A stretch of DNA of 64,000 nt, taken from assembly GCA_021787535.1 (NCBI GenBank), contig JAJYLR010000003.1, positions 56-64,055 on the forward strand, given 5' to 3'. This document shows positions 2,347 to 30,278 of this stretch, piece after piece. The position numbers and the translations under genes are program-made. Source of the DNA: a bacterium (lineage in GTDB: Bacteria > Patescibacteriota > CPR2 > UBA1875 > JAJYID01). The stretch's first letter is position 1; the number at the start of each line of letters is the position of its first letter. The notes under the pieces are model-generated. The model saw nothing but the letters and a program-made list of their open reading frames with translations. It did no database searches and had not been told where the DNA came from.

Positions 2347-4296
2347 GTGAGAATCAGCGACGAGGAACTAAAACAAATCCTAATCGAAAACCATCTTTTA
2401 AGTGAGGTTAAGTTTAATGATTATCTAAGTGAAGCCAAAGAAAGCAAAGTCCCGCTTTACAACCTTTTAATTATGAAAAAGGTCATCTCTGATCGCGACC
2501 TTGTGAAGTTATATGGAAAAGAAACAGGGATTCCCTATATAGATTTGGCTGATTTTCAAATAGATAAAAAAGTTTTAAAGAATCTCCCTGAGAAAATTGC
2601 CAGAAAATATAATACGATTGTTTTCAGTAAAGAAAAAGACGGCAGATTTTCTCTGGCAATGAGCGACCCCGGGGATATTCAGGCGATTCAGTTTATCAAG
2701 AAAAAATTTGGCAGTAACTTAAGAATTTTTATCACGCCTCAGTCAGACATTGACTTGATTCTTGACCAATACAAGGCGGGTTTCTCTGAGGAAATCTCAA
2801 AGGCCATTGAAGAAAATAAGGAGATATCCGTTGAGGAAGAAGAACTTGAGGAAACCGCTACCGCCGATACCGTCAAAGAAATAGTCCAGGAAGCGCCTAT
2901 TGCAAGGGCGGTTAAAATCATTCTGGAATATGCAGTAAAATCGCGGGCCAGTGATGTGCATATAGAACCAAGGGAAACATTTATTCAGATTAGATATCGT
3001 ATTGATGGCGTGCTCAGGGATACGATGACATTACCTAAACAGATTATGTATTCGATAGTTACAAGAGTGAAGATCCTGTCAAATTTAAGGATTGACGAAC
3101 ATAGAGTCCCTCAAGACGGAAGGATTAAGCTCAAACTTGCCGGTAAAAGCATTTCGATCAGAGTCTCTACCCTGCCGGTTATGGACGGTGAAAAGGTGGT
3201 CATGAGGATTTTAGATGAATCAACTAAGGCAGCTTCTCTTGAAGAGCTGGGATTTCGGGGGCTGGCCCTCAAAGTTATCAAAAGGAATCTTCATCGTCCG
3301 CATGGAATGACTCTTGTAACCGGTCCTACGGGATCAGGAAAGTCGACCACTCTTTATAGTCTGCTGACCTTGCTTAATGATATCGGCGTTAACATTTCCA
3401 CAGTAGAGGATCCCGTGGAGTATCGCATCCCCGGTGTTAATCAAACTCAAGTGAATCCGGCTGTGGGAATGACCTTTGCTTCCGGACTTAGAGCACTGCT
3501 GCGCCAAGATCCGGATGTGATTATGGTTGGGGAAATACGAGATCGGGAAACGGCGGAAATGGCTGTACATGCTTCGCTGACCGGCCACGTAGTTTTATCT
3601 ACTTTACACACAAACTCAGCCATCGGATCTTTGCCAAGATTGGAAGATATGGAAATCGAACCTTTCCTAATCGCTTCAACAGTCAACGATGTCATTGGCC
3701 AGCGGCTGGTCAGAAAGCTTTGTCCTGATTGCAAGCAGCAGTATTCTCTGGATCATAAGGTTTTAGAGCAGCTGATTTGCGATTTCGGGCTCAAAGAGGA
3801 ATTTTTAAAAATAGAGAATGTCCAGAAAGAGAAAAAGAAGCTTTTAAATCTCGGGCTGGAAACAAAAGATATTTCTGCTCTCGCCGGTTTCACAGGAAAG
3901 AAGTCAATCGCGCAGATTCTGGCTGAAAAACCAGAGCTCTTAGATAAGGTCTCTGCCAAAACAGGCCGCGAGGTTCGCGCAGAACTTTTTATCGAAACCG
4001 ACCCCAAAACCTGCCGGCTGAGTTTAGGTAAAATCGATGCATATCATCTAGATCTTTACAAAGCGGTTGGGTGTGCGAAATGTGAACAAACCGGCTACAA
4101 AGGACGGCTCGGCATATATGAAGTGGTGGAAGTGACAGATGAAATCGGTTCTTTAATTGTGCGGAAGGCCTCAGAGGATGAACTGTCGGCTGAAGCCAAA
4201 AAAAACGGGTTTACAAATATGTATCAGGACGGTTTTACCAAAGTTTTAAGCGGCATCACATCAATTGAAGAATTAGTAAGAGTAACTCAAGAATAA
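2347..4296 (+). CDS. pilB: Type IV pilus assembly ATPase PilB (GspE family)
   Basis: GTG start with AGGAGG 9 nt upstream. N-terminal T2SSE_N-like domains, Walker A GPTGSGKST, Asp box, His box, and a CPDC...CAKC tetracysteine motif. Confidence 0.9.
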   Translation: MRISDEELKQILIENHLLSEVKFNDYLSEAKESKVPLYNLLIMKKVISDRDLVKLYGKETGIPYIDLADFQIDKKVLKNLPEKIARKYNTIVFSKEKDGRFSLAMSDPGDIQAIQFIKKKFGSNLRIFITPQSDIDLILDQYKAGFSEEISKAIEENKEISVEEEELEETATADTVKEIVQEAPIARAVKIILEYAVKSRASDVHIEPRETFIQIRYRIDGVLRDTMTLPKQIMYSIVTRVKILSNLRIDEHRVPQDGRIKLKLAGKSISIRVSTLPVMDGEKVVMRILDESTKAASLEELGFRGLALKVIKRNLHRPHGMTLVTGPTGSGKSTTLYSLLTLLNDIGVNISTVEDPVEYRIPGVNQTQVNPAVGMTFASGLRALLRQDPDVIMVGEIRDRETAEMAVHASLTGHVVLSTLHTNSAIGSLPRLEDMEIEPFLIASTVNDVIGQRLVRKLCPDCKQQYSLDHKVLEQLICDFGLKEEFLKIENVQKEKKKLLNLGLETKDISALAGFTGKKSIAQILAEKPELLDKVSAKTGREVRAELFIETDPKTCRLSLGKIDAYHLDLYKAVGCAKCEQTGYKGRLGIYEVVEVTDEIGSLIVRKASEDELSAEAKKNGFTNMYQDGFTKVLSGITSIEELVRVTQE

Positions 4297-7266: not shown

Positions 7267-8524
7267 CAAGAAATTTTCAATTTTCAATTTTCAATTTTCA
7301 ATGTCCCTGATTTTGCGGCCGCTTAGAAATAGGCAGCTTTTGCCAAGCCGCCAGGGATCAATCTTGGTTCTATTTATTATTGTTCTGTCTGTCATGACTA
7401 CGATCGTTCTGGCCGTTTCGGGGCTTGTTTTAAATAACCGGATTGGAGTTGAGCGGACTTATCAGAAAGACAAAGCTTTAAATATTGCCGAGGCGGGGAT
7501 ACAAAAAGCGCTGTGGGAACTAAAGGGTCATAACCCATCCTATACCGGAGAAACGGGTAATACTTACATTGCGGGCGGGGAATTTGATGTTACAGTCACT
7601 CAAATTGATGCGAACAACGATTACATTACATCAACAGCTTATGTTCCCTCGAAAGCCAATCCTAAATACAAAAAAGCGATCAAAGTTAAAATATCTGATA
7701 CGCCGGTTACTACAAATCCGGCCTTTAGCTACGCTATTCAGGCGGGAGCAGGAGGTATCGATGTGGGCGGATCGAGCGAGGTACATGGCAGTCTTTATTC
7801 TAATGGTGCAATCTCTGTATCAGGCGCATCAGCAACAGTAAATGATCCCGGAGATGCTTGGGCAGTCACAACTATTACCGATCCCAAAGGCGGAATCAAA
7901 GGCACTAAAACGCAAGGAGCCCAGCCGGTAGCTTTGCCGACTATTGACTTGAACCAATGGCGGTCTTTGGCCCAAGCTGGCGGGACCATTACCGGCGACT
8001 ATTCTCCGCCTGCGACCGGTAGTTACACCAATTTTGGACCAAAAGAAATTACGGGGAATTTTTCAATGTCCGGATCAAATCAAAAAATGAATCTAATGGG
8101 GCCTTTGTATATCCACGGCAACCTAAATATTAGCGGTGGCGAATGGAAACTTGATGATTCCTTCGGGTCCAATGGCACGATAGTTTTGGTCGACGGCCAA
8201 ATCAGTATTACCGGAGGCGACTTTCATGGCAATTCCAGCGGATCTTATATTTTATTTATTTCTACTAGTACCGCTAACACTAAAGACAGCGGTTCTGCAA
8301 TATATTATAGAGGCAATGCTAATGGTGAAAAGCTGGCTCTTTATGCATATAATGGAGCGATGACGTTGGCAGGTTCCGGCGAAATTATCGCAATGACCGG
8401 ACAAACCTTGTTTTTAAACGGCAGCGGAGAGATACACTATGACAGCGGCCTGAAGTCCGAACAGTTTGCCGGCGGCCCCGGCGGGACTTGGGTTGTGAAA
8501 GAATGGCAGGAGATATCGCCCTGA
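7259..8524 (+). CDS. PilX-like large minor pilin (PilX N-terminal domain)
   Basis: GTG start after AGGAGG. RQGSILVLFIIVLSVMTTIVLAVSGL resembles PilX_N. The C-terminal region is rich in G, S and T. Confidence 0.55.
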   Translation: MTSKKFSIFNFQFSMSLILRPLRNRQLLPSRQGSILVLFIIVLSVMTTIVLAVSGLVLNNRIGVERTYQKDKALNIAEAGIQKALWELKGHNPSYTGETGNTYIAGGEFDVTVTQIDANNDYITSTAYVPSKANPKYKKAIKVKISDTPVTTNPAFSYAIQAGAGGIDVGGSSEVHGSLYSNGAISVSGASATVNDPGDAWAVTTITDPKGGIKGTKTQGAQPVALPTIDLNQWRSLAQAGGTITGDYSPPATGSYTNFGPKEITGNFSMSGSNQKMNLMGPLYIHGNLNISGGEWKLDDSFGSNGTIVLVDGQISITGGDFHGNSSGSYILFISTSTANTKDSGSAIYYRGNANGEKLALYAYNGAMTLAGSGEIIAMTGQTLFLNGSGEIHYDSGLKSEQFAGGPGGTWVVKEWQEISP

Positions 8525-17122: not shown

Positions 17123-17170
17123 AATCACATCTTGGTGTAGTATGCAGTATACCGTATTGAGTATTGAGGG

Positions 17171-17251
17171 GATTCTGGACAAGCCAGAATGACAAAGGGA
17201 AAGGGATTCCTCCGCTTGCCCCGTCGGACGGGGTTGTCGGTCGGAATGACA
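17171..17251. repeat. Two repeat units (GATTCTGGACAAGCCAGAATGACA + GGATTCCTCCGC...GTCGGTCGGAATGACA) between CIRCE and the hrcA start
   Basis: Hairpin ATTCTGG-acaag-CCAGAAT followed by GACA. The second unit closely resembles the 3' half of the murD insert. Confidence 0.65.
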
Positions 17252-18053: not shown

Positions 18054-18087
18054 TGTCATTCCCGCTCAGGCGGGAATCCAGACAAGC
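18054..18087. repeat. Repeat unit TGTCATTCCCGCTCAGGCGGGAATCCAGACAAG
   Basis: Same termini with a different hairpin stem. Lies upstream of grpE. Confidence 0.5.
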
Positions 18088-18141: not shown

Positions 18142-18729
18142 ATGAAAGAGAAAGACAAGAAAGCCAAAGGCAAAAAGGAAGACCAACTGGATTCCCGCCG
18201 GAGTTTATCCGACGAAGCTAAAGCGTGGGCGGGTGGGAATGACAAGAAAGAGGTCAGGAATGAAAATATAGAAGCCGAGCATGACAAGGGTCAGACCCTT
18301 GCAATGGAAAATGTTGCTTTGAAGAAGATGCTGCAGCGGGCACAGGCGGATTTTATAAATTACCGCCAGCGTGCAGAGCGGGAGAAGTCAGAAATGGTCG
18401 ATTACGGCAAGCTGGAGACGATTAAGGAGCTTCTGCCGGTATTCGACAACTTCGAACGGGCCAGAAACCATTTCCCGAAGGAGCTGGAGAAGAATGATTG
18501 GGCGCAGGGGATGCTCGCGGTAGAGAAGCAGTTTGTCCAGAAAATGGAAGAAATGGGGATTAAGAGAATCCCGACAGTCGGCGAGCAATTTGATCCAAAT
18601 TTACATGAGGCAATACACATGGAGCCGGCAAAAGGCAAGAAATCGAATGAGATTACCTGCGAATACGAACCGGGATACATATATAAAGATAAAGTTTTAA
18701 GGTATGCAAAGGTAAAGTTGGCAAAATGA
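18142..18729 (+). CDS. grpE: Nucleotide exchange factor GrpE
   Basis: Coiled-coil N-terminus, LLPVFDNFERA motif and a C-terminal beta domain. Confidence 0.8.
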   Translation: MKEKDKKAKGKKEDQLDSRRSLSDEAKAWAGGNDKKEVRNENIEAEHDKGQTLAMENVALKKMLQRAQADFINYRQRAEREKSEMVDYGKLETIKELLPVFDNFERARNHFPKELEKNDWAQGMLAVEKQFVQKMEEMGIKRIPTVGEQFDPNLHEAIHMEPAKGKKSNEITCEYEPGYIYKDKVLRYAKVKLAK

Positions 18730-19412
18730 AGTTTGAACTAAAAAGGTACAATAAAGGTCCTAGAAAAGATTATCGCAATATAACTAATGAGGAGCTGATT
18801 ACTGATTTGCGGGATGTCGCTAATAGGTTACAGAAAGAGTCAGTCACTCATGGAGAATACGACCAGAATGGCAGATTTAATAGTCATATTTTTGGTAGAA
18901 GGTTTGGAGGTTGGTTGAACGCACTTGAAGAAGCTGGTCTTCAAAAAACAAGAAATTATCAAATAGCTGATGAGGAAGCATTTCAAAATTTAGAGAATGT
19001 TTGGATGAAACTGGGGCGACAACCTAGGCGCGAAGATTTACATAGACCACTTTCAAAGTATAGCGGAGCATTCTATGAATATCGATTTGGTGCATGGAGC
19101 AAGGCGCTGGAAAAGTTTATTAATTATATTAACAAGGCAGAACTCAGTACATTAGAGAGATCCGAAAATACAACAAGTAATCCGAGTATTCAACATAAAA
19201 CAAATAGGAATATAAATTTGCAGTTACGTTTTATTGTCATGAAAAGAGATAATTTTAAATGTCAAAAATGTGGTCGATCGCCAGCAACTGACTCGAGCAT
19301 AATTCTACATGTTGATCATAAAAAAGCATGGGCGAATGGTGGTGAAACAGTATTGGAAAACTTGCAGACACTTTGTTCGAAGTGCAACATAGGTAAAAGC
19401 GATTTGGAGTAA
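18726..19412 (+). CDS. Free-standing HNH endonuclease with two homing-endonuclease-associated repeats
   Basis: C-terminal HNH signature: CQKCG...LHVDHKKAWANGGETVLENLQTLCSKCN. N-terminal repeats read RFGGWLNALEEAGL and YRFGAWSKALEKF. ATGA overlap with the grpE stop. Confidence 0.75.
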   Translation: MKFELKRYNKGPRKDYRNITNEELITDLRDVANRLQKESVTHGEYDQNGRFNSHIFGRRFGGWLNALEEAGLQKTRNYQIADEEAFQNLENVWMKLGRQPRREDLHRPLSKYSGAFYEYRFGAWSKALEKFINYINKAELSTLERSENTTSNPSIQHKTNRNINLQLRFIVMKRDNFKCQKCGRSPATDSSIILHVDHKKAWANGGETVLENLQTLCSKCNIGKSDLE

Positions 19413-21575: not shown

Positions 21576-21671
21576 TGTCATCCTCGGACTTGATCCGGGG
21601 ATCCAGACAGTCAGTGGGAAATTGACTGGATCCCCGCCTTCGCGGGAATGACAAAAAGAAGGGGAATGACA
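21576..21671. repeat. Repeat element with nested palindromes (TGTCATCC...CGCGGGAATGACA, GGGGAATGACA)
   Basis: CCGGGGATCC...GGATCCCCG long stem. Two GAATGACA ends. Lies immediately after the dnaK stop. Confidence 0.55.
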
Positions 21672-21824
21672 AATGTAAGTGAATTATTAATTCATTGATC
21701 CGACCAGGGCTCGGAAAGTGATTTCCGGGCCTCATCGGGTTAAGAGCCTGTACATTTTAGCTAAATAGTGGTAAAATTTATGCCACGAAAACCAAAAAAT
21801 TCGAGTACCTGAGGAGGTGTAGCC

Positions 21825-22247
21825 TTGACAGAACTAACGGAAGAACTAAATCAGCTAATGGCAGCTGAAACGATGGCGAATGATCTCTCACGTAAGTTTG
21901 TTAAAGTCATTCGCGGCTTATCTCCGGAAGAATTTTGGGAATTTTTGAAAGACACGAAAGTTCCTATTATCAGAGATATGCCTGAGGGTGTCATAAGAAT
22001 CTTGGTGGTCAGGTTGCGAGATCCGGACATTGTCGCCTTTGAAGACTCTGTCTCTACTTGCAGGAGCAAGATTGCAAAGATCGAAAAGATACACCGTGAC
22101 TTTGTCACCTCTTCACTAGCTACCCTCTCTGATATTGAGAAGGAGAGTCTGGCAAGAAGGCTGGATCCAACTCTTGTTCCGCGAGAAGAAAGATCCTGCG
22201 GGACAGGTTCCTCTGGTTGGGGTGGCGGAGGCGGAGGCGGTAAGTAA
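21825..22247 (+). CDS. Hypothetical protein with C-terminal poly-Gly tail
   Basis: TTG start after GAGGAGG. Ends ...SSGWGGGGGGGK. GC-rich. Confidence 0.4.
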   Translation: MTELTEELNQLMAAETMANDLSRKFVKVIRGLSPEEFWEFLKDTKVPIIRDMPEGVIRILVVRLRDPDIVAFEDSVSTCRSKIAKIEKIHRDFVTSSLATLSDIEKESLARRLDPTLVPREERSCGTGSSGWGGGGGGGK

Positions 22248-22283
22248 GTTCAGTCACAAAAATCACCGAGGAGGTGACCACAT

Positions 22284-22890
22284 GAAAGATAGATTCTCCG
22301 GCGTGGTGCACGGCATAACCCGAGTAGTATTGACCGCTCCGCTGCGCAGGCTCTGGGGCTGCCATGTCATTGGCGCGGAAAATCTTCCAGCGCAGGGCCC
22401 AGCGATATTTGCATCGAACCATGCGAGTTATCTGGACCCCATGATTCTCGGAATCAGCTATGCAGGCAACATTCGCTGGATGGCGAAAGCCGAGCTCTGG
22501 AAGATACCGGTTTTCAGGTGGCTTATCGAAAAGCTGGGGGCATTTCCGGTCAGGCGCGGCAAGCCTGATAGGGCGGCCCTTCGGCAGGCACGCGAACTGC
22601 TTGTCGGGAAAAAGGTCCTCGGGATGTTTCCCCAAGGCACGCGGATTAAGGGGGAAGACCTCGGCGAAGCTTTTCCGGGAGTCGGTATGATTGCCTTGTC
22701 CGAGGATATCCCAGTGATTCCTATTCGGGTGAGAGGCCATAATCAGGTTTTCCGGCGGGGGATACCACGCTTTCCGGCGATAACAATCACTGTCGGTGAA
22801 CCGATAGATCTCGAGATCAAAGGGATGAGGCGGAGTGAGGCAGCTAAGGAGGCGGCCAACCGTATCATGGCAGCAATCAAGGCTTTATGA
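22284..22890 (+). CDS. Lysophospholipid (1-acyl-glycerol-3-phosphate) acyltransferase family protein
   Basis: HX4D motif FASNHASYLDP, a PVRRG-type motif FPVRRGKPDR, and FPQGTR. ATG at 22284 follows GAGGAGGTGA. The track ORF starts earlier, at 22135. Confidence 0.7.
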
Positions 22891-22907
22891 CTCGGGAGGT
22901 GACGGAG

Positions 22908-23054
22908 ATGGAACCAGGAACGGGTACGGCTGTAGGTTTCCTGATGGCTGCTCTGCTAATTGCGGTATTGGTCATTGCAATGATCGCAGATGATAACGAT
23001 ACCGCAGGGAATAACGTTTACCCACAGGTTGCAAAGACAATCAGCCAACCCTAA
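22908..23054 (+). CDS. Small single-TM peptide (hypothetical)
   Basis: 48 aa. RBS GGGAGGTGA. Hydrophobic core AVGFLMAALLIAVLVIAMIA. Confidence 0.25.
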   Translation: MEPGTGTAVGFLMAALLIAVLVIAMIADDNDTAGNNVYPQVAKTISQP

Positions 23055-23070
23055 CACAGGAGGACAGCGT

Positions 23071-23253
23071 ATGCACAAAGGCACTTATGAGAAGCCAGCT
23101 CTTGTTCAGGAAGGTGATCTCAAACGCATCACTGGTACGGATGCGGGTTGGCAGAGCAGTATTGCGACTGCCCACAATACCAAGAAGCATGAGTGCCATT
23201 GTGGTGATGGCGCCCATGGGTGTGGCTGTAGTCACGATCACGACGCCGCCTAG
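23071..23253 (+). CDS. Small Cys/His-rich protein (HECHCGDGAHGCGCSHDHD), putative metal-binding
   Basis: ATG at 23071 after GGAGG. 60 aa ending in a dense C/H cluster. Confidence 0.35.
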   Translation: MHKGTYEKPALVQEGDLKRITGTDAGWQSSIATAHNTKKHECHCGDGAHGCGCSHDHDAA

Positions 23254-23365
23254 AAGGAATGGCGGGGGTGTAAGGATTTGCAAAAGGGCAGGGCGTTCGC
23301 GCCCCGCCCATTCAATTTAAGAGACAATTTAGATAGAAATTTGGTATAATTTTTATATAGATTCC

Positions 23366-23384
23366 TGTTTTCACGGGAATGACA
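23366..23384. repeat. 3'-end fragment of the repeat (TTCACGGGAATGACA), 11 nt before the dnaJ start
   Basis: Matches CTTCGCGGGAATGACA at 21640-21653. Confidence 0.4.
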
Positions 23385-23395
23385 GAAAGAGGAAT

Positions 23396-24514
23396 ATGGC
23401 AAGTAAAGATTATTATGAAATACTAGGCGTCAAGAAGGATGCCGGAGTGGACGAAATCAAGAAGGCTTATCGCAAGCTGGCTTTAAAGTATCATCCGGAT
23501 AAAGGCGGCGGAGCCGAAGCTGAGTCGAAATTTAAAGAGATTAACGAGGCCTACCAGATTCTTTCCGACCCCGAGAAGCGCCAGGCGTATGATCAGTTTG
23601 GTTCCACCCAGCCGGGTGGTGGGTTTAATTGGCAGCAGTACCAGCAGCAGGCCGGGCAAGGTTATGACGGTGGTTTTGAAGGGTTCGACTTTTCGGATCT
23701 TGGAGGATTTGGCGATATATTTGAAACATTTTTCGGCGGTGGCGGAGGCAGGTCTCGCGCGCGAAAAGGCGCTGACCTCGAAACCGTCATTACTGTAGAT
23801 TTCAAAGAGGCGGTTTTCGGTGCGGAAACTTTCATCAAGCTAAACAAACATTTTGAGTGCGAAAAGTGCGGCGGGTCAGGCGCAGAAAAAGGCACGGAAA
23901 TGGTGGAGTGCAAGGTTTGCCATGGCGCCGGCAAGACCCAGACGGCCAGGCGTACAATTCTCGGCACGTTTGCCCAAACTGCCATCTGCGAGGAGTGCCA
24001 AGGGCAGGGTAAGGTGCCAAAAGTCGCCTGCTCGGTCTGCAAGGGTAAGGGAATTGTTAAAACTGAAAAAGAGGTTAAGATCAAAATCCCGGCCGGTGTT
24101 GACGATGGGCAAACTATCCGGCTCTCAGGATTGGGCGAGGCCATGAAGGGCGGTGCAACCGGCGATCTCTATGTCCACATCCGGGTGCGGCCGAATGATA
24201 AGATTAAACGAGAAGGATACAATCTCATGAATACGGCCGTCATTTCATTTGCCGAAGCGGCCATGGGCACGGTCATCGAAGTGCCGACCATTGATGGTAA
24301 TGTAAAACTGAAGATTCCGGCAGGCACCCAAAGTGAAAAGGTCTTTAAATTATCTAGCCGCGGTGTGCCGCATCTTGGTGGAGGTAAGCGTGGTGATCAT
24401 CTGGTGACCATCAAAGTTCGCGTGCCGGAAAAATTAACGAAGAAACAAAAAGAACTCTTGGAAGAATTTCAGAAAGAAGAGGGTAAAGAAAAGCCCAAAT
24501 TCTGGCCGTTCTAA
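23396..24514 (+). CDS. dnaJ: Chaperone DnaJ
   Basis: J-domain with HPD (KYHPDKG), a G/F region, and four CxxCxGxG zinc-finger repeats. Confidence 0.95.
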
Positions 24515-25284
24515 TTATCTTTTCTCTCAACCTGATCGCTCTGCCAAACTAGATTGAATATGGCCCCTAAAGCGCCTGCGAGATATGGATTTTCGATTAA
24601 GGTCCCGTTGATGTTTCCCTTGAAGGAAATAAAGGAAACTTTCTCGGCATAAATATATATTTGGGTATATATGCCGAAAAGATCATTTGGCACGTAAGCT
24701 CTGTCTTTGTAATATATCCGATCTTTTAGGTTCTGAGCTTTAGTTAAGTTGGCAGGGGAAATAATACGAGTTTTTATGTCCGCACTTGCCCGTCTTTTTG
24801 CTTCTTCAGCGAGAAAGTCGTCGACCTTTTTCTTATTTTCAACAGATCTAAAAATTAGAAGTTCTTTTGGCTTTTCTCTTACGATATCGTCGAATAGCTT
24901 TTTTATGCCTTTTCGCCCTTCATAATGAGAAATGCCCGGTTTATTATTTATAAGATTATAGTCAGATATCATATCCGGAAGCATGTTCTCTATAATCTGC
25001 GTATTCTCGAGAGACTCTTTCTCTTTTTTCTCAGCATAGCTTAGAAGTTTCTGCGGATGGCTAATGCGATATGTCAATTTTTTCTTCCTGCTTATGCGTT
25101 CGATTAAGTCTTTTTCCTCGAGCTTATTTAAGACTGAATATGTGTTTGTTCTTGTAAGTTTAGACTTTTTTGCTATATCACTGGCTATAAGCGGCTCGCT
25201 GGCCAAAAGAATTTCGTAAACTCTGGTTTCGCTAGAGGTTAATCCGAGTTTTTCAAGGACTGCTTTTTTCATAATTTCCTCCAA
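24511..25284 (-). CDS. TrmB-family transcriptional regulator
   Basis: N-terminal wHTH: [46 protein letters not shown]. Confidence 0.55.
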
Positions 25285-25403
25285 GGTTATTAATAATTCT
25301 TATTCTAAATTATGTTATTTATAATGTCAATATGATAATGACATTATATATTGAATCTTCATATCTATACTAAAATATTGTTTCACACAGTGTCTTTATA
25401 CTA

Positions 25404-25432
25404 TTGACACTTCTATAGAACAGTTGTACTAT
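25404..25432 (+). promoter_or_regulatory. Sigma70-type promoter (TTGACA-17-TACTAT)
   Basis: TTGACA at 25404-25409 and TACTAT at 25427-25432, ahead of a GC-rich two-gene cassette. Confidence 0.45.
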
Positions 25433-25554
25433 ATGTCTCGCGATAGGGTGAGTCGGGTACATTGAGAGAAAAATGGCTGCGGTTTGGGGCAAGATATATC
25501 CCCCAGACTGCAGCCATCCGGTTGCAGCAAAGACAACCGAAAGGAGAAGAAGAA

Positions 25555-25959
25555 ATGAGAGTATTTGGATGGATCGTTGCGGGATTCCTTGGAATCTTAG
25601 CGGTCATTACACTGGCAACGGCAATCACCTGGTACGCAACAGGTGGGCAGTATCTGATCATCAGATTCTGGGCGCCAAGAATGGCTGCTGTTGAGCGCCA
25701 GATCTTCGTCCAGACGCCTTCCTATGTCCAGGGGATGCAGCAGGAGCTTGACTCCTATCATCTGGACTATCTGAAGGCGCAGTCGAAAGGCGACACCGGC
25801 CATATGGATGCGATTGCCGATATCGTCCTGCATCGCGCAGACGAGATCGATAACAGTCTGCTGTCGGATGATCTTCAGAGCTGGATTCAGCATCTGAAGG
25901 CCGAAAGAGAGGCGAAGGCGATGGGATCCGAAACAAAGACAAGTACCACTGGTTACTAG
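25555..25959 (+). CDS. Hypothetical membrane-anchored protein (GC-rich)
   Basis: ATG at 25555 after AAAGGAGAAGAAGAA. N-terminal TM VFGWIVAGFLGILAVITLATAI. The track ORF starts at 25462. Confidence 0.4.
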   Translation: MRVFGWIVAGFLGILAVITLATAITWYATGGQYLIIRFWAPRMAAVERQIFVQTPSYVQGMQQELDSYHLDYLKAQSKGDTGHMDAIADIVLHRADEIDNSLLSDDLQSWIQHLKAEREAKAMGSETKTSTTGY

Positions 25960-25986
25960 ATACACCAAAAACAAGGAGGAATTACC

Positions 25987-26520
25987 ATGAAAAAGTGGTT
26001 TATTGCACTAGCGATCGTGGTTTTCGCCGGTGTAACCCTGATAGCCGCCGGCTGCAACGACGCACCGAAGACTGCGGACAGCGCCCAGCGCGATCGGCAG
26101 GAAAAGCTTCAGTCTGATGAAGCAAACCAGGTCGGCATGCCGGATATCAAGAACTTCAGGGAAGCGAAGATCCTGAAGGATCTCTACGAGAAGCGCGACC
26201 AGATGGACCTCGCGACCTACACCTACGTTTACAACGAGATGAGCGGGAAGTTCGTCTTCCTTGGCGAAAGCGTGGGGTACGGTATTCCTTACTCGACCCA
26301 GTTCAGCAATCCAGATAAGGTTGAGTATCATGGCGATCAGGGTGCTGGCAACGTTGTAATACCTCAAGCTGAACCGAACGGTCTCTTCACCCCCAGTTCC
26401 ACCGAAGGAACTTGGGTCATGTTGAAGGATCCGAACGGCTCAGGTGTCACACCGGTCTACGTCGAACCTCGCGTTCTCGTTTCGCAGTTCAAACTGCCAG
26501 ACAGCATCGTGCAACACTAA
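25987..26520 (+). CDS. Lipoprotein (hypothetical, GC-rich)
   Basis: Signal peptide with lipobox LIAAGC. RBS AAGGAGGAAT. Confidence 0.5.
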   Translation: MKKWFIALAIVVFAGVTLIAAGCNDAPKTADSAQRDRQEKLQSDEANQVGMPDIKNFREAKILKDLYEKRDQMDLATYTYVYNEMSGKFVFLGESVGYGIPYSTQFSNPDKVEYHGDQGAGNVVIPQAEPNGLFTPSSTEGTWVMLKDPNGSGVTPVYVEPRVLVSQFKLPDSIVQH

Positions 26521-26547
26521 CAGGACTGAGCAGGCCTACTGCTCAAT

Positions 26548-26578
26548 GCCCCGGAACTATGTTTCGGGGCCTTTCTTA
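26548..26578 (+). terminator. Intrinsic terminator after the lipoprotein gene
   Basis: GCCCCGGAA-ctatg-TTTCGGGGC followed by a T-run. Confidence 0.5.
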
Positions 26579-26602
26579 TAAAATGCCCAGAAGACATTTC
26601 GT

Positions 26603-26628
26603 TTCTGGTGGGTCGGCTGGGATTCGAA
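26603..26628 (-). repeat. 26-nt duplicate of the tRNA-Lys 3' end (T-arm + acceptor + CCAGAA)
   Basis: TTCTGGTGGGTCGGCTGGGATTCGAA is identical to 26707-26732, 104 bp away. Confidence 0.7.
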
Positions 26629-26676
26629 GCGGCTCGCCGCATTCGGCTTAACTGGGTTCTCACCAAGCACTCCACC

Positions 26677-26701
26677 AAAATAAAAACTCCACTTCGTGGA
26701 G
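26677..26701 (-). terminator. Intrinsic terminator downstream of tRNA-Lys
   Basis: Minus strand reads CTCCACGAAGTGGAG followed by TTTTTATTTT. Confidence 0.5.
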
Positions 26702-26709
26702 ATTTATTC

Positions 26710-26785
26710 TGGTGGGTCGGCTGGGATTCGAACCCAGGACATCCTGCTTAAAAGGCAGGCGCTCTACCAACTGAGCTACCGACCC
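26710..26785 (-). tRNA. tRNA-Lys (anticodon TTT)
   Basis: Reverse complement is GGGTCGGTAGCTCAGTTGGTAGAGCGCCTGCCTTTTAAGCAGG...GGTTCGAATCCCAGCCGACCCACCA, a cloverleaf with CCA encoded. Confidence 0.85.
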
Positions 26786-26801
26786 GAATTGTACTTGAAA
26801 A

Positions 26802-26825
26802 GATTCTGGACAAGCCAGAATGACG
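26802..26825. repeat. Repeat unit GATTCTGGACAAGCCAGAATGAC
   Basis: Identical to the unit at 17171-17195. Confidence 0.55.
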
Positions 26826-26934
26826 CTGAAATAACTATGATATTTTAGCAGATTTAAGGCGAAGGGTCAATCAAATCAAGGGTTTTTTTCTGTCATTTGA
26901 CAAGCACTTTCAAAAAAGCCATAATACTTATATT

Positions 26935-27432
26935 ATGCGAGCGAGGGTGTTAAACAAAAGAAAAGAAGGTTTCACTCTAATTGAAGTTGTAGTGGTAATG
27001 GCTATTATTGCAGTTCTTGCGGTATTGGTTATTGGCGCCATAACTGTGGCAAAAAATACAGCCATAGAAACACAAAACAGAACTAATGCCCATATCTTAC
27101 AATCGTCATTTGAGGCGTATTATGCAAAGTATAAAACCTGGCCTACCTTCAATAGCAACACCTGTCCAGGTGATTATTACTGCTCCTTTAGAGATTTAGC
27201 TAATGATGGCACGGCCGGTTCAGGTTCATATACGAGCCAAAACTGGACTCCTCCCAAAATCCAGCCCTCATGTTCCGGTACTGGTAATAAATGGGCGGGG
27301 ACTTTTTCTGATGATGATGGCGGTCTTGTCACTTCTTCATCTTCTGGCGGTTATACTATATATATGGCTAACTATAATTGCAGCACTGGCATTGCTTCTA
27401 ATTTTAATGATGATGTTATCCAAGGGCAATAA
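26935..27432 (+). CDS. Type IV pilin-like protein (prepilin N-terminal methylation domain)
   Basis: KRKEGFTLIEVVVVMAIIAVLAVLVIGAI. Confidence 0.6.
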   Translation: MRARVLNKRKEGFTLIEVVVVMAIIAVLAVLVIGAITVAKNTAIETQNRTNAHILQSSFEAYYAKYKTWPTFNSNTCPGDYYCSFRDLANDGTAGSGSYTSQNWTPPKIQPSCSGTGNKWAGTFSDDDGGLVTSSSSGGYTIYMANYNCSTGIASNFNDDVIQGQ

Positions 27433-27464
27433 AAATTTATCTAAATTTTCAAGTTTATCTCGAC

Positions 27465-27953
27465 CTATTTAGAAACCTTGCCTTTTACAAAATCGGCTAC
27501 GAAGAGAAAGCCGATTGGTGCCACTATCCAGACTAGCTTTAACTGGTCTATTTTTGTGATGAGAACTGATTTAGCAAGCAAATCCACCTTTGCTCCCGGA
27601 TCGAGGAAGGATAAAATTGCCGTTGCCATAAAGCCGGCAGCTAGAAGACCGTAGATTATTCCGATAACTAAAGATCCGTCATCTCCTCCTTTACCGCTCA
27701 GTTCGGTTTTGGCGTTCAAAATGATAATTGTAGCGAAAAAGAGAGCGACTTTAACCAAAAATAACGAGAAATTTTGTGTATGGGCGAAATGTTTTGCTTC
27801 ATCAAATGCAAGTGATCCAAGCTCCGTGGCAACAACATAGCCCATAAAAGATCCCATGAGAATGCCAAGCGCTTTTCCGCGCCCCAGAAGAGCGCCGACA
27901 GCACCCAACGCTGCGAAAAACACGATTGTAAACAAGTCCCAGGATAATGTCAT
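27465..27953 (-). CDS. CvpA-like membrane protein (putative)
   Basis: Four TM segments in a 162-aa protein. Resemblance to CvpA is weak. Confidence 0.35.
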   Translation of the reverse strand: MTLSWDLFTIVFFAALGAVGALLGRGKALGILMGSFMGYVVATELGSLAFDEAKHFAHTQNFSLFLVKVALFFATIIILNAKTELSGKGGDDGSLVIGIIYGLLAAGFMATAILSFLDPGAKVDLLAKSVLITKIDQLKLVWIVAPIGFLFVADFVKGKVSK

Positions 27954-28784: not shown

Positions 28785-28851
28785 GATTTAATTTTCAATT
28801 TACAATTTGAAATTTTCAGTCGATTATTAAATAATAAATTTTCTAGTAAAG

Positions 28852-28876
28852 GATTCTGGTCAAGCCAGAATGACAG
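28852..28876. repeat. Repeat unit GATTCTGGTCAAGCCAGAATGACA
   Basis: One substitution relative to the 17171 copy. About 60 nt upstream of the M16 peptidase gene. Confidence 0.55.
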
Positions 28877-28934
28877 AATAAAAATTCTAAATTTCAGATT
28901 CCCATTCAAAATACTAAATACGAGATACCAATCA

Positions 28935-30194: not shown

Positions 30195-30239
30195 AGTAAA
30201 TCTTTAATTTGAGATTCGAAATTTATAATTTAAAGAAAA

Positions 30240-30264
30240 GATTCTGGTCAAGCCAGAATGACAA
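30240..30264. repeat. Repeat unit GATTCTGGTCAAGCCAGAATGACA overlapping the annotated ndk start
   Basis: The ATG of the GAATGACA motif is in frame with ndk. Confidence 0.55.
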
Positions 30265-30278
30265 AAAAAGGACAACTT

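Follow-up and report, generated by a model that had tools for sequence, protein, structure and literature searches.

An exact copy of a tRNA-Lys 3′ end beside a phage-type gene pair at a variable locus downstream of dnaJ in a CPR2 bacterium

Results

A tRNA-Lys gene whose 3′ end is present twice

We analysed a stretch of 64,000 nucleotides (nt) from a bacterium of the CPR2 lineage of Patescibacteriota (assembly GCA_021787535.1, contig JAJYLR010000003.1, positions 56 to 64,055). This whole stretch is called the window here; all positions are those of the 64-kb window, and counts of open reading frames (ORFs) or of repeat copies refer to it. The locus under study lies downstream of dnaJ, where the 3′ end of a tRNA-Lys gene occurs in two copies next to an islet of two genes that is rich in guanine and cytosine (GC). 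From dnaJ onwards the order is a TrmB-like gene (minus strand), the two-gene cassette (plus), the tRNA fragment, the tRNA-Lys gene (minus), a pilin-like gene (plus) and a gene for a membrane protein of 162 amino acids (aa) on the minus strand.

ARAGORN assigned five tRNA genes in the window, one of which is tRNA-Lys(UUU) at 26710-26785 on the minus strand. It matches Rfam RF00005 with 79.4 bits, and its CCA end is encoded in the genome. A sequence of 26 nt, TTCTGGTGGGTCGGCTGGGATTCGAA, occurs in two exact copies, one within the tRNA gene and reaching just past it (26707-26732) and one at 26603-26628, both on the minus strand; no such pair arose in 100 shuffles of the sequence. The copies are offset by 104 nt from start to start and separated by 78 nt. 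Read in the sense of the tRNA, the repeat is TTCGAATCCCAGCCGACCCACCA followed by GAA, that is, the final 23 nt of the tRNA and three bases of its flank. The tRNA part comprises the T-loop (TTCGAA), the 3′ strands of the T-stem and acceptor stem, and the CCA. Since the repeat takes in three nucleotides of genomic flank, the copying occurred at the level of DNA.

The boundaries of the repeat are sharp: it begins in the T-loop and stops 3 nt beyond the CCA, and the flanks outside the 26 nt are 26-28% identical in register, as random sequences are. The 5′ sequence of the distal copy aligned to the tRNA body with a best local score of 9 (shuffles, 7.4 ± 1.4); it ends in GCCGC, with which T-stem pairing is impossible. 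Neither ARAGORN nor Rfam (E ≤ 1) detected a second tRNA at 26603-26628. The sharp start in the T-loop and the unrelated flanks indicate a displaced tRNA fragment, an attachment-site (att)-type scar, rather than a second tRNA. The copy within the tRNA may thus be described as an attL-like regenerated target end, and the displaced one as an attR-like fragment. A third copy with up to three mismatches was absent from the whole window, and the number of core copies with up to 10 of 26 mismatches between 15 and 35 kb was at chance level only.

The intrinsic terminator of the tRNA gene (26701-26687, minus strand, from a terminator scan) lies between the two copies, within the 78-bp segment at 26629-26706 (minus strand) that is presumed to be the residue of an integrated element. 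RNA folding of the tRNA with its downstream sequence gave the tRNA and an extended terminator hairpin and nothing else. An independent assembly of SRR13170411 from Logan (L001, 2832 nt) is identical to window positions 23908-26739 and contains both copies, so that the duplication is not an artefact of one assembler. It also confirms the order dnaJ, TrmB-like gene, cassette, fragment and tRNA. An assembly artefact was rejected on this ground; in addition, joining two contigs wrongly at the tRNA would not exchange the flanks on both sides. The initial annotation, made from the letters of the window, had reported a duplicated tRNA-Lys 3′ end beyond the terminator of the tRNA, with an offset of 104 bp and a gap of about 80 bp, and this description holds. 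Its account of the repeat as 26 nt of tRNA plus 3 flanking nt is to be corrected to 23 plus 3, and the further copies that it had left to be sought do not exist in the window.

A two-gene cassette of a phage family

The islet carries two genes on the plus strand. The first (25555-25959) encodes a 134-aa single-pass membrane protein with an N-terminal membrane helix and a helical remainder, and the second (25987-26520) a predicted lipoprotein of 177 aa. A promoter-like site (25404-25432, plus strand; TTGACA, 17-nt spacer, TACTAT; 10 of 12 consensus positions) precedes them, and a putative intrinsic terminator with a 10-bp stem including seven GC pairs (26548-26570, with the T run to 26580; plus strand) follows. 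Both signals come from consensus scans only, and together they bracket the two genes as expected for an autonomous unit of the moron type. The predicted signal peptide of the lipoprotein, MKKWFIALAIVVFAGVTLIAAG|C, ends in the lipobox LIAAG|C23, and the cysteine C23 is kept in at least 90% of 41 homologues.

The GC content of 25440-26602 is 0.525, compared with 0.35 on the side of the TrmB-like gene, 0.38 on the pilin side and 0.432 for the window. At third codon positions (GC3) the lipoprotein gene reaches 0.66, the highest value among 69 ORFs (mean 0.46, standard deviation 0.08). High values are also found in plsC (GC3 0.61), in dnaK and dnaJ (0.53-0.54) and in a few further genes. The composition of the islet is therefore suggestive and not unique in the window. 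Seen from the tRNA, with which it is convergent, the cassette begins 32 nt past the displaced fragment. It lies outside the 78 bp bounded by the repeats, and hence the repeats do not delimit the islet.

The lipoprotein belongs over its full length to phrog_24725 (PHROGs, E = 8.9e-35). Among cultured phages, tblastn identified homologues in Synechococcus phage S-SRM01 (49% identity), in phi3626 of Clostridium (gp45, 37%) and in some 20 phages of Vibrio harveyi. A large protein collection yielded 553 homologues, the best of which other than the protein itself is 58% identical, and the family comprises 861 representatives after clustering at 50% identity. It also occurs on at least 367 IMG/VR contigs. 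As is expected of morons, homologues of the islet are thus borne by phages, both cultured ones and those of IMG/VR. They are found in lytic and temperate phages and in phages of monoderm and diderm hosts.

The first gene of the pair has counterparts in these phages as well. In S-SRM01, phi3626 and four long contigs, a gene for 105-132 aa stands directly upstream of the lipoprotein gene, and the 134-aa protein of the window aligns with the upstream products of S-SRM01 (35% identity) and phi3626. An upstream ORF was present beside the lipoprotein gene in 78 of 80 viral loci, many of them overlapping it by 4 nt (ATGA). When the 134-aa protein was compared with these 78 ORFs by phmmer, 53 matched at the limit of E ≤ 10, and the 15 best had E values of 2e-24 to 1e-16. 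The conservation of the upstream partner across phage loci indicates that the islet represents a two-gene module conserved in phages. Its genes are accessory, of phage origin, and do not belong to the core of the lineage. A third small gene often stands 3′ of the pair in phages (L024-L103, at about 3480-3920) and is missing from the window. Among 30 viral loci it was assigned to phrog_16527 in 13, to phrog_11227 ('protease') in seven and to phrog_200 (lipoprotein) in six, which suggests a larger envelope module in phages.

The pair also occurs alone in another bacterial chromosome, GCA_964607655.1 (L004, GC 0.57), where it stands between rpsI and grpE with its own promoter and terminator. The 134-aa protein and its partner there match with a BLASTP E value of 2e-18. 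The GC content of that cassette equals that of its host, and no convincing flanking repeats were found around it. At positions 1-425 of the same locus, a gene with a weak match to Baseplate_J lies directly 5′ of infA and ribosomal protein genes. The motif GAGYCGGGTAC is shared by the 5′ leaders of the two cassettes; it was found in none of 78 viral loci and was taken as a chance resemblance.

Neither islet protein matched Pfam, NCBIfam or PADLOC. The AlphaFold (AF2) model of the lipoprotein is of moderate quality (predicted local distance difference test (pLDDT) 68.8, predicted template modelling score (pTM) 0.45); Foldseek gave no match to the PDB at E ≤ 0.001, and there was no match among PDB sequences. 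No phage structural or lysogeny genes were found beside the cassette in the window, where its neighbours are dnaJ, the TrmB-like regulator, the tRNA and the pilin gene instead of a prophage.

Comparison with relatives

Metagenomes were scanned with a 29-mer of the tRNA covering the T-arm and acceptor stem, which returned 12 loci, six of them with a tRNA-Lys identical at 75-76 of 76 positions (76/76 in L012, L018 and L023; 75/76 in L015, L016 and L017). Five of these six relatives include dnaJ at 78-82% identity and represent about three distinct lineages. The closest is L012, whose DnaK is 92% identical. The gene for the 162-aa membrane protein is present in L015, L016, L017 and L023, and L015 also includes the genes that follow it. 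Matches to the window end at the stop codon of dnaJ (24514) and restart at 27465 in the same orientation. The region between them, from the stop codon of dnaJ to that of the 162-aa membrane-protein gene (24515-27464, delimited by blastn and tblastn against L012, L015-L018 and L023), is variable. Within it only the tRNA module is shared, and it is inverted.

The tRNA matches its counterparts in the opposite orientation, and its promoter is reversed along with it. The promoter region (26842-26877, minus strand; TTGACC, 17-nt spacer, TG-n-TAAAAT) was found by a promoter scan and by alignment of the relatives. In the sense of the tRNA, the sequence of 26786-26877, with TTGAC, the 17-nt spacer, TGcTAAAAT and then ATCATAGTTATTT, aligns with L012, L015, L016 and L018. 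Since the tRNA is co-directional with dnaJ in five relatives, it follows that the tRNA module has been inverted in the window. The inverted block extends at least over 26603-26877 and at most over 24515-27464, and no inverted repeats were found flanking it.

None of the six relatives has the TrmB-like, cassette or pilin genes at this locus (blastn and tblastn), nor is the tRNA end duplicated in any of them, their tRNA-Lys being single there. The DNA bounded by the repeats is thus missing from the relatives, in which no second copy exists and the downstream sequence is different. What lies 3′ of the tRNA differs from one relative to the next: two ORFs in L015, one each in L016 and L017, and an ORF of 282 aa in L023. 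In L012 (ERZ1292625, Hainich H41 contig 791, 6748-9154), the 3′ end of tRNA-Lys directly adjoins a lysogeny-type module. This module encodes a 524-aa large serine recombinase (Resolvase, Recombinase and Zn_ribbon_recom domains), an ImmA/IrrE-type peptidase and an XRE-type regulator. The last 21 codons of the recombinase gene are antisense to the tRNA, and the far end of the element is beyond the DNA that was fetched. IMG/VR contained no relatives of this recombinase. The stretch from dnaJ to the membrane-protein gene is hypervariable, the displaced tRNA fragment is unique to the window, and recombination in the lineage has a hotspot at the tRNA-Lys(UUU) gene that follows dnaJ.

A further repeat at a tRNA-Lys 3′ end was seen in a distant lineage (L020, Ga0172379_10000688, GC 0.59). 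At 7692-7946 in the tRNA sense, a block of 57 nt that consists of the last 14 nt of tRNA-Lys and the terminator is repeated 198 nt downstream, and the two repeats enclose a GC-rich insert of 141 nt that opens with an inverted T-arm-like fragment. It is a second small repeat-bounded insert at the 3′ end of a tRNA-Lys gene.

Surroundings of the locus

The window represents an ordinary stretch of chromosome, in which a type IV pilus operon is followed by hrcA, grpE, an HNH endonuclease gene, dnaK, plsC and dnaJ, then by the variable region, and beyond the 162-aa gene by genes for a DedA-family protein (VTT domain) and an M16 peptidase and by more housekeeping genes. The gene after the M16 peptidase is presumably nucleoside-diphosphate-kinase-like, as judged by eye from its sequence. 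Within the variable region, the gene at 24511-25284 (minus strand) encodes a TrmB/MarR-type winged-helix regulator (Pfam PF01978, E = 8.8e-17). It is convergent with dnaJ, the stop codons of the two genes overlap, and no terminator lies between them. In a search of 5.8 billion protein clusters its nearest homologues reached identities of only 28-33%, and a scan of genome contigs with the protein returned two archaeal winged-helix proteins only; the gene is an accessory one and an orphan. At 26935-27432 (plus strand), 5′ of the tRNA, a gene encodes a type IV pilin-like protein (PF07963; NCBIfam pilin models).

Two other places near dnaJ are of note. An HNH homing-endonuclease gene (18726-19412, plus strand; GC 0.364) with two PF18780 repeats and PF01844 lies between grpE and dnaK, with a 4-nt overlap at the stop codon of grpE, and has the appearance of a selfish element inserted into the heat-shock operon. 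The spacer between dnaK and dnaJ (21600-23390) holds a gene for a PlsC-type acyltransferase (22135-22890) with a GC content of 0.558, the maximum of the neighbourhood, and a GC3 of 0.61. In L012 three unrelated small ORFs occupy this spacer instead, which makes it a second variable spot.

Short hairpins followed by GAATGACA recur in the window, for example at 17167-17200, 18054-18085 (minus strand), 21629-21659, 23360-23390, 26798-26831, 28848-28881 and 30236-30269. The octamer GAATGACA itself was counted 18 times against 2.15 expected, mostly just 5′ of genes. In L012 and L015 the hairpin motif lies between the promoter and tRNA-Lys. The family could be a repetitive extragenic palindrome (REP)-like or a leader element.

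Discussion

We favour, with moderate confidence, the reading that the duplicate is a scar of integration and that the islet is independent phage-derived cargo at a tRNA-Lys hotspot. A mobile element would have entered the 3′ part of the tRNA gene by site-specific recombination, with a crossover region from the T-loop to just past the CCA. It would have brought a new 3′ end and a terminator, displacing the original 3′ end downstream, and would then have been deleted almost entirely, leaving the 78 bp between the 26-nt direct repeats and no recombinase. Because the identity block is 26 nt long, a tyrosine-type integrase is the simplest assumption for such an element. The islet would be a separate, self-contained cargo unit. 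Since it is distal to the displaced fragment, it may have been present already or may be what is left of an older island. The tRNA and its promoter, possibly with the whole block, would have been inverted in a separate event.

Several observations weigh against this scenario. No integrase or recombinase domain was detected in the window ORFs of at least about 190 aa, and a remnant of only 78 bp would be an extreme reduction. A search of IMG/VR for the 23-mer as a phage attachment site (attP) gave no matches; a lone match of a 19-mer was to a phage tRNA-His in a tRNA array and is irrelevant. The sole recombinase seen at this tRNA in relatives is of the serine type, and serine recombinases normally give no long identity blocks. 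The window also contained no remnant of the element seen in L012. When the flanks of the repeat copies and the 78-bp segment were compared with the tRNA-downstream flanks of the relatives, there was no significant similarity (z ≤ 2.8). Neither flank resembles the native flank of the relatives, so that either copy may be the original. Moreover, the species is known from one genome. As for the gene pair, the role proposed for it comes from its topology and its origin in phages, with no match by Foldseek, PDB sequence, NCBIfam or PADLOC and a moderate model (pLDDT 68.8).

Other histories of the locus can be imagined. If the cassette, with or without the TrmB-like gene, were the stump of a first island at tRNA-Lys and a second element had entered the regenerated tRNA, 26603-26628 would be the junction of two elements, and deletions would have taken most of both together with the outermost third repeat. 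The position of the cassette, 32 nt past the fragment and convergent with the tRNA, is the usual seat of accessory genes at prophage ends; the cassette is phage-derived and missing in relatives, and the recombinase element of L012 shows the locus to be a hotspot. Such tandem accretion nevertheless requires two integrations and two deletions, and neither a third core copy above chance level (up to 10 of 26 mismatches, 15-35 kb) nor a recombinase remnant was found. The GC content of the TrmB-like gene (0.375) also differs from that of the cassette (0.53), and we consider this history rather unlikely. It is less probable still that the duplicate arose with no integrase at all, as a by-product of the inversion of the tRNA module through illegitimate recombination, break repair or template switching. 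The module is indeed reversed in comparison with five relatives, the minimal block that must have been inverted (26603-26877) has the fragment at its edge, and an integrase is not present. Inversions, however, yield inverted duplications or none, not a direct repeat 104 nt apart; the block has no flanking inverted repeats, and boundaries in the T-loop and just past the CCA are the classic position of an integrase identity block.

The 104-bp unit might instead be functional, either as a minimal non-autonomous integrative element that is flanked by att sites and mobilised in trans, or as a fragment that serves as a spare attachment site or decoy. The complete identity of the two 26-mers implies that the duplication is recent or conserved, and the 141-nt insert of L020 within 57-nt repeats lies at the same tRNA end. 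The unit is nevertheless present once in the window, its insert is dissimilar to that of L020, neither an excised form nor an attP was found, and there were no signs of mobility; we regard this explanation as very improbable. That the copy is a remnant of a second, degenerate tRNA-Lys gene is effectively refuted. The 26-nt identity, and nothing more, speaks for it, whereas the sequence preceding the copy matches the tRNA at 28% of positions in register, forms no T-stem and aligns to the tRNA body with 9 against 7.4 ± 1.4, ARAGORN and Rfam (E ≤ 1) were negative, and the relatives have a single tRNA-Lys here. Scar formation with independent cargo remains our preferred reading.

Both islet proteins probably reside on the outer face of the cytoplasmic membrane. 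From their topology, phage origin and envelope-related neighbours, our best guess is a role at the envelope of the kind that phages encode, for instance in superinfection exclusion. Tentatively, and with low confidence, the pair may be a widespread phage envelope module that small-genome groundwater bacteria captured as a promoter-to-terminator unit and that acts as a membrane barrier against superinfecting phages. If so, the two genes would represent a new kind of exclusion or defence pair.

The initial annotation had described a GC-rich islet with its own promoter and terminator that encodes a membrane protein and a lipoprotein. Signals were recovered by the scans at 25404-25432 (10 of 12 positions) and at 26548-26570 with a T run, and both ORFs are real, as judged from the helix of the 134-aa protein and the conserved C23 of the 177-aa protein. 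The elevated GC content stands as well (0.525 against 0.35 and 0.38), but plsC, dnaK and dnaJ are similar. Its proposal of an att scar or of tandem events is upheld in part: it agrees with the anatomy of the displaced fragment, its absence from relatives and the recombinase of L012, and is weakened by the islet not being bounded by the repeats and by the lack of an integrase, none having turned up among window ORFs of at least about 190 aa. The annotation had pointed to a comparison with relatives, which found the duplicate and the islet genes missing in six. It had also raised the possibilities that the copy belongs to a degenerate second tRNA-Lys conserved in relatives and that the islet genes are core genes; these fall away, as the tRNA scans were negative and the locus of the relatives has one tRNA-Lys and none of the islet genes, which belong to a phage family. 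Beyond its scope, the tRNA module proved to be inverted, and the variable region is larger (24515-27464) and takes in the TrmB-like and pilin-like genes.

The tRNA-Lys beside the dnaK/dnaJ operon is thus a hotspot of integration and rearrangement in an uncultivated lineage of groundwater type, with a recombinase element in one relative, varied small cargo in others, and a scar with a phage envelope cassette in the window. From its gene content and the provenance of one relative, the Hainich aquifer, the lineage is probably Patescibacteria-like. Little is known of mobile elements and of phage-host links in organisms of this sort, which makes the locus a convenient place to search for them. Of the findings, the hotspot and the uncharacterised phage pair are the principal leads.

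In the Islander description, an integrated island ends in a regenerated tRNA gene on one side and in its displaced fragment on the other (PMC4383910). By this rule the 'island' here would be only the 78 bp of 26629-26706. Like Islander islands, the locus has an intact regenerated tRNA (79.4 bits, identical or nearly so in relatives), a displaced 3′ fragment downstream in direct orientation, an identity block that begins in the T-loop and stops shortly beyond the 3′ end, and bounded DNA that is missing in relatives. It differs in that the segment of 78 bp contains neither an integrase nor cargo; it is a scar and not an island. The att-flanked unit without a recombinase, and a possible tandem layout with older cargo, are also reminiscent of cis-mobilisable elements (CIMEs). 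CIMEs are att-flanked remnants of integrative elements without recombination genes, are kilobases long, and undergo tandem accretion with integrative and conjugative elements (ICEs) in Streptococcus. In contrast, the unit in the window is far smaller, shows no sign of mobilisation and has no third att copy.

Phage morons, or lysogenic-conversion cassettes, such as bor and lom of lambda, resemble the islet in its autonomous order of promoter, genes and terminator, its deviant composition, its phage homologues and its envelope proteins, whereas the islet lies outside any recognisable prophage. The gene order is that of two-component spanins of the Rz/Rz1 type: the gene for a type-II-like membrane protein, whose ectodomain is helical, precedes that for a lipoprotein, and the two often overlap. 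The mature lipoprotein of the islet, however, is about 155 aa long and rich in β-strands, which is large for an o-spanin, and one of the phages that carry the pair, phi3626, infects a Gram-positive host, which lacks an outer membrane. In S-SRM01 and phi3626 the pair stands among early, hypothetical or accessory genes and not in a lysis cassette. Given this neighbourhood, the size of the lipoprotein and the occurrence in monoderm hosts, a spanin role is unlikely. Membrane proteins and lipoproteins of superinfection exclusion include Llp of T5, Ltp of TP-J34 and Imm and Sp of T4. The islet proteins would be comparable to them as small, phage-encoded, membrane-anchored proteins, one of which is a lipoprotein; they share no sequence, profile or fold match with T5 Llp, TP-J34 Ltp or T4 Imm and Sp, and the comparison serves as a working analogy. 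As a whole, the locus is an ordinary genomic hotspot with a feature of a known kind, rather than a new kind of system.

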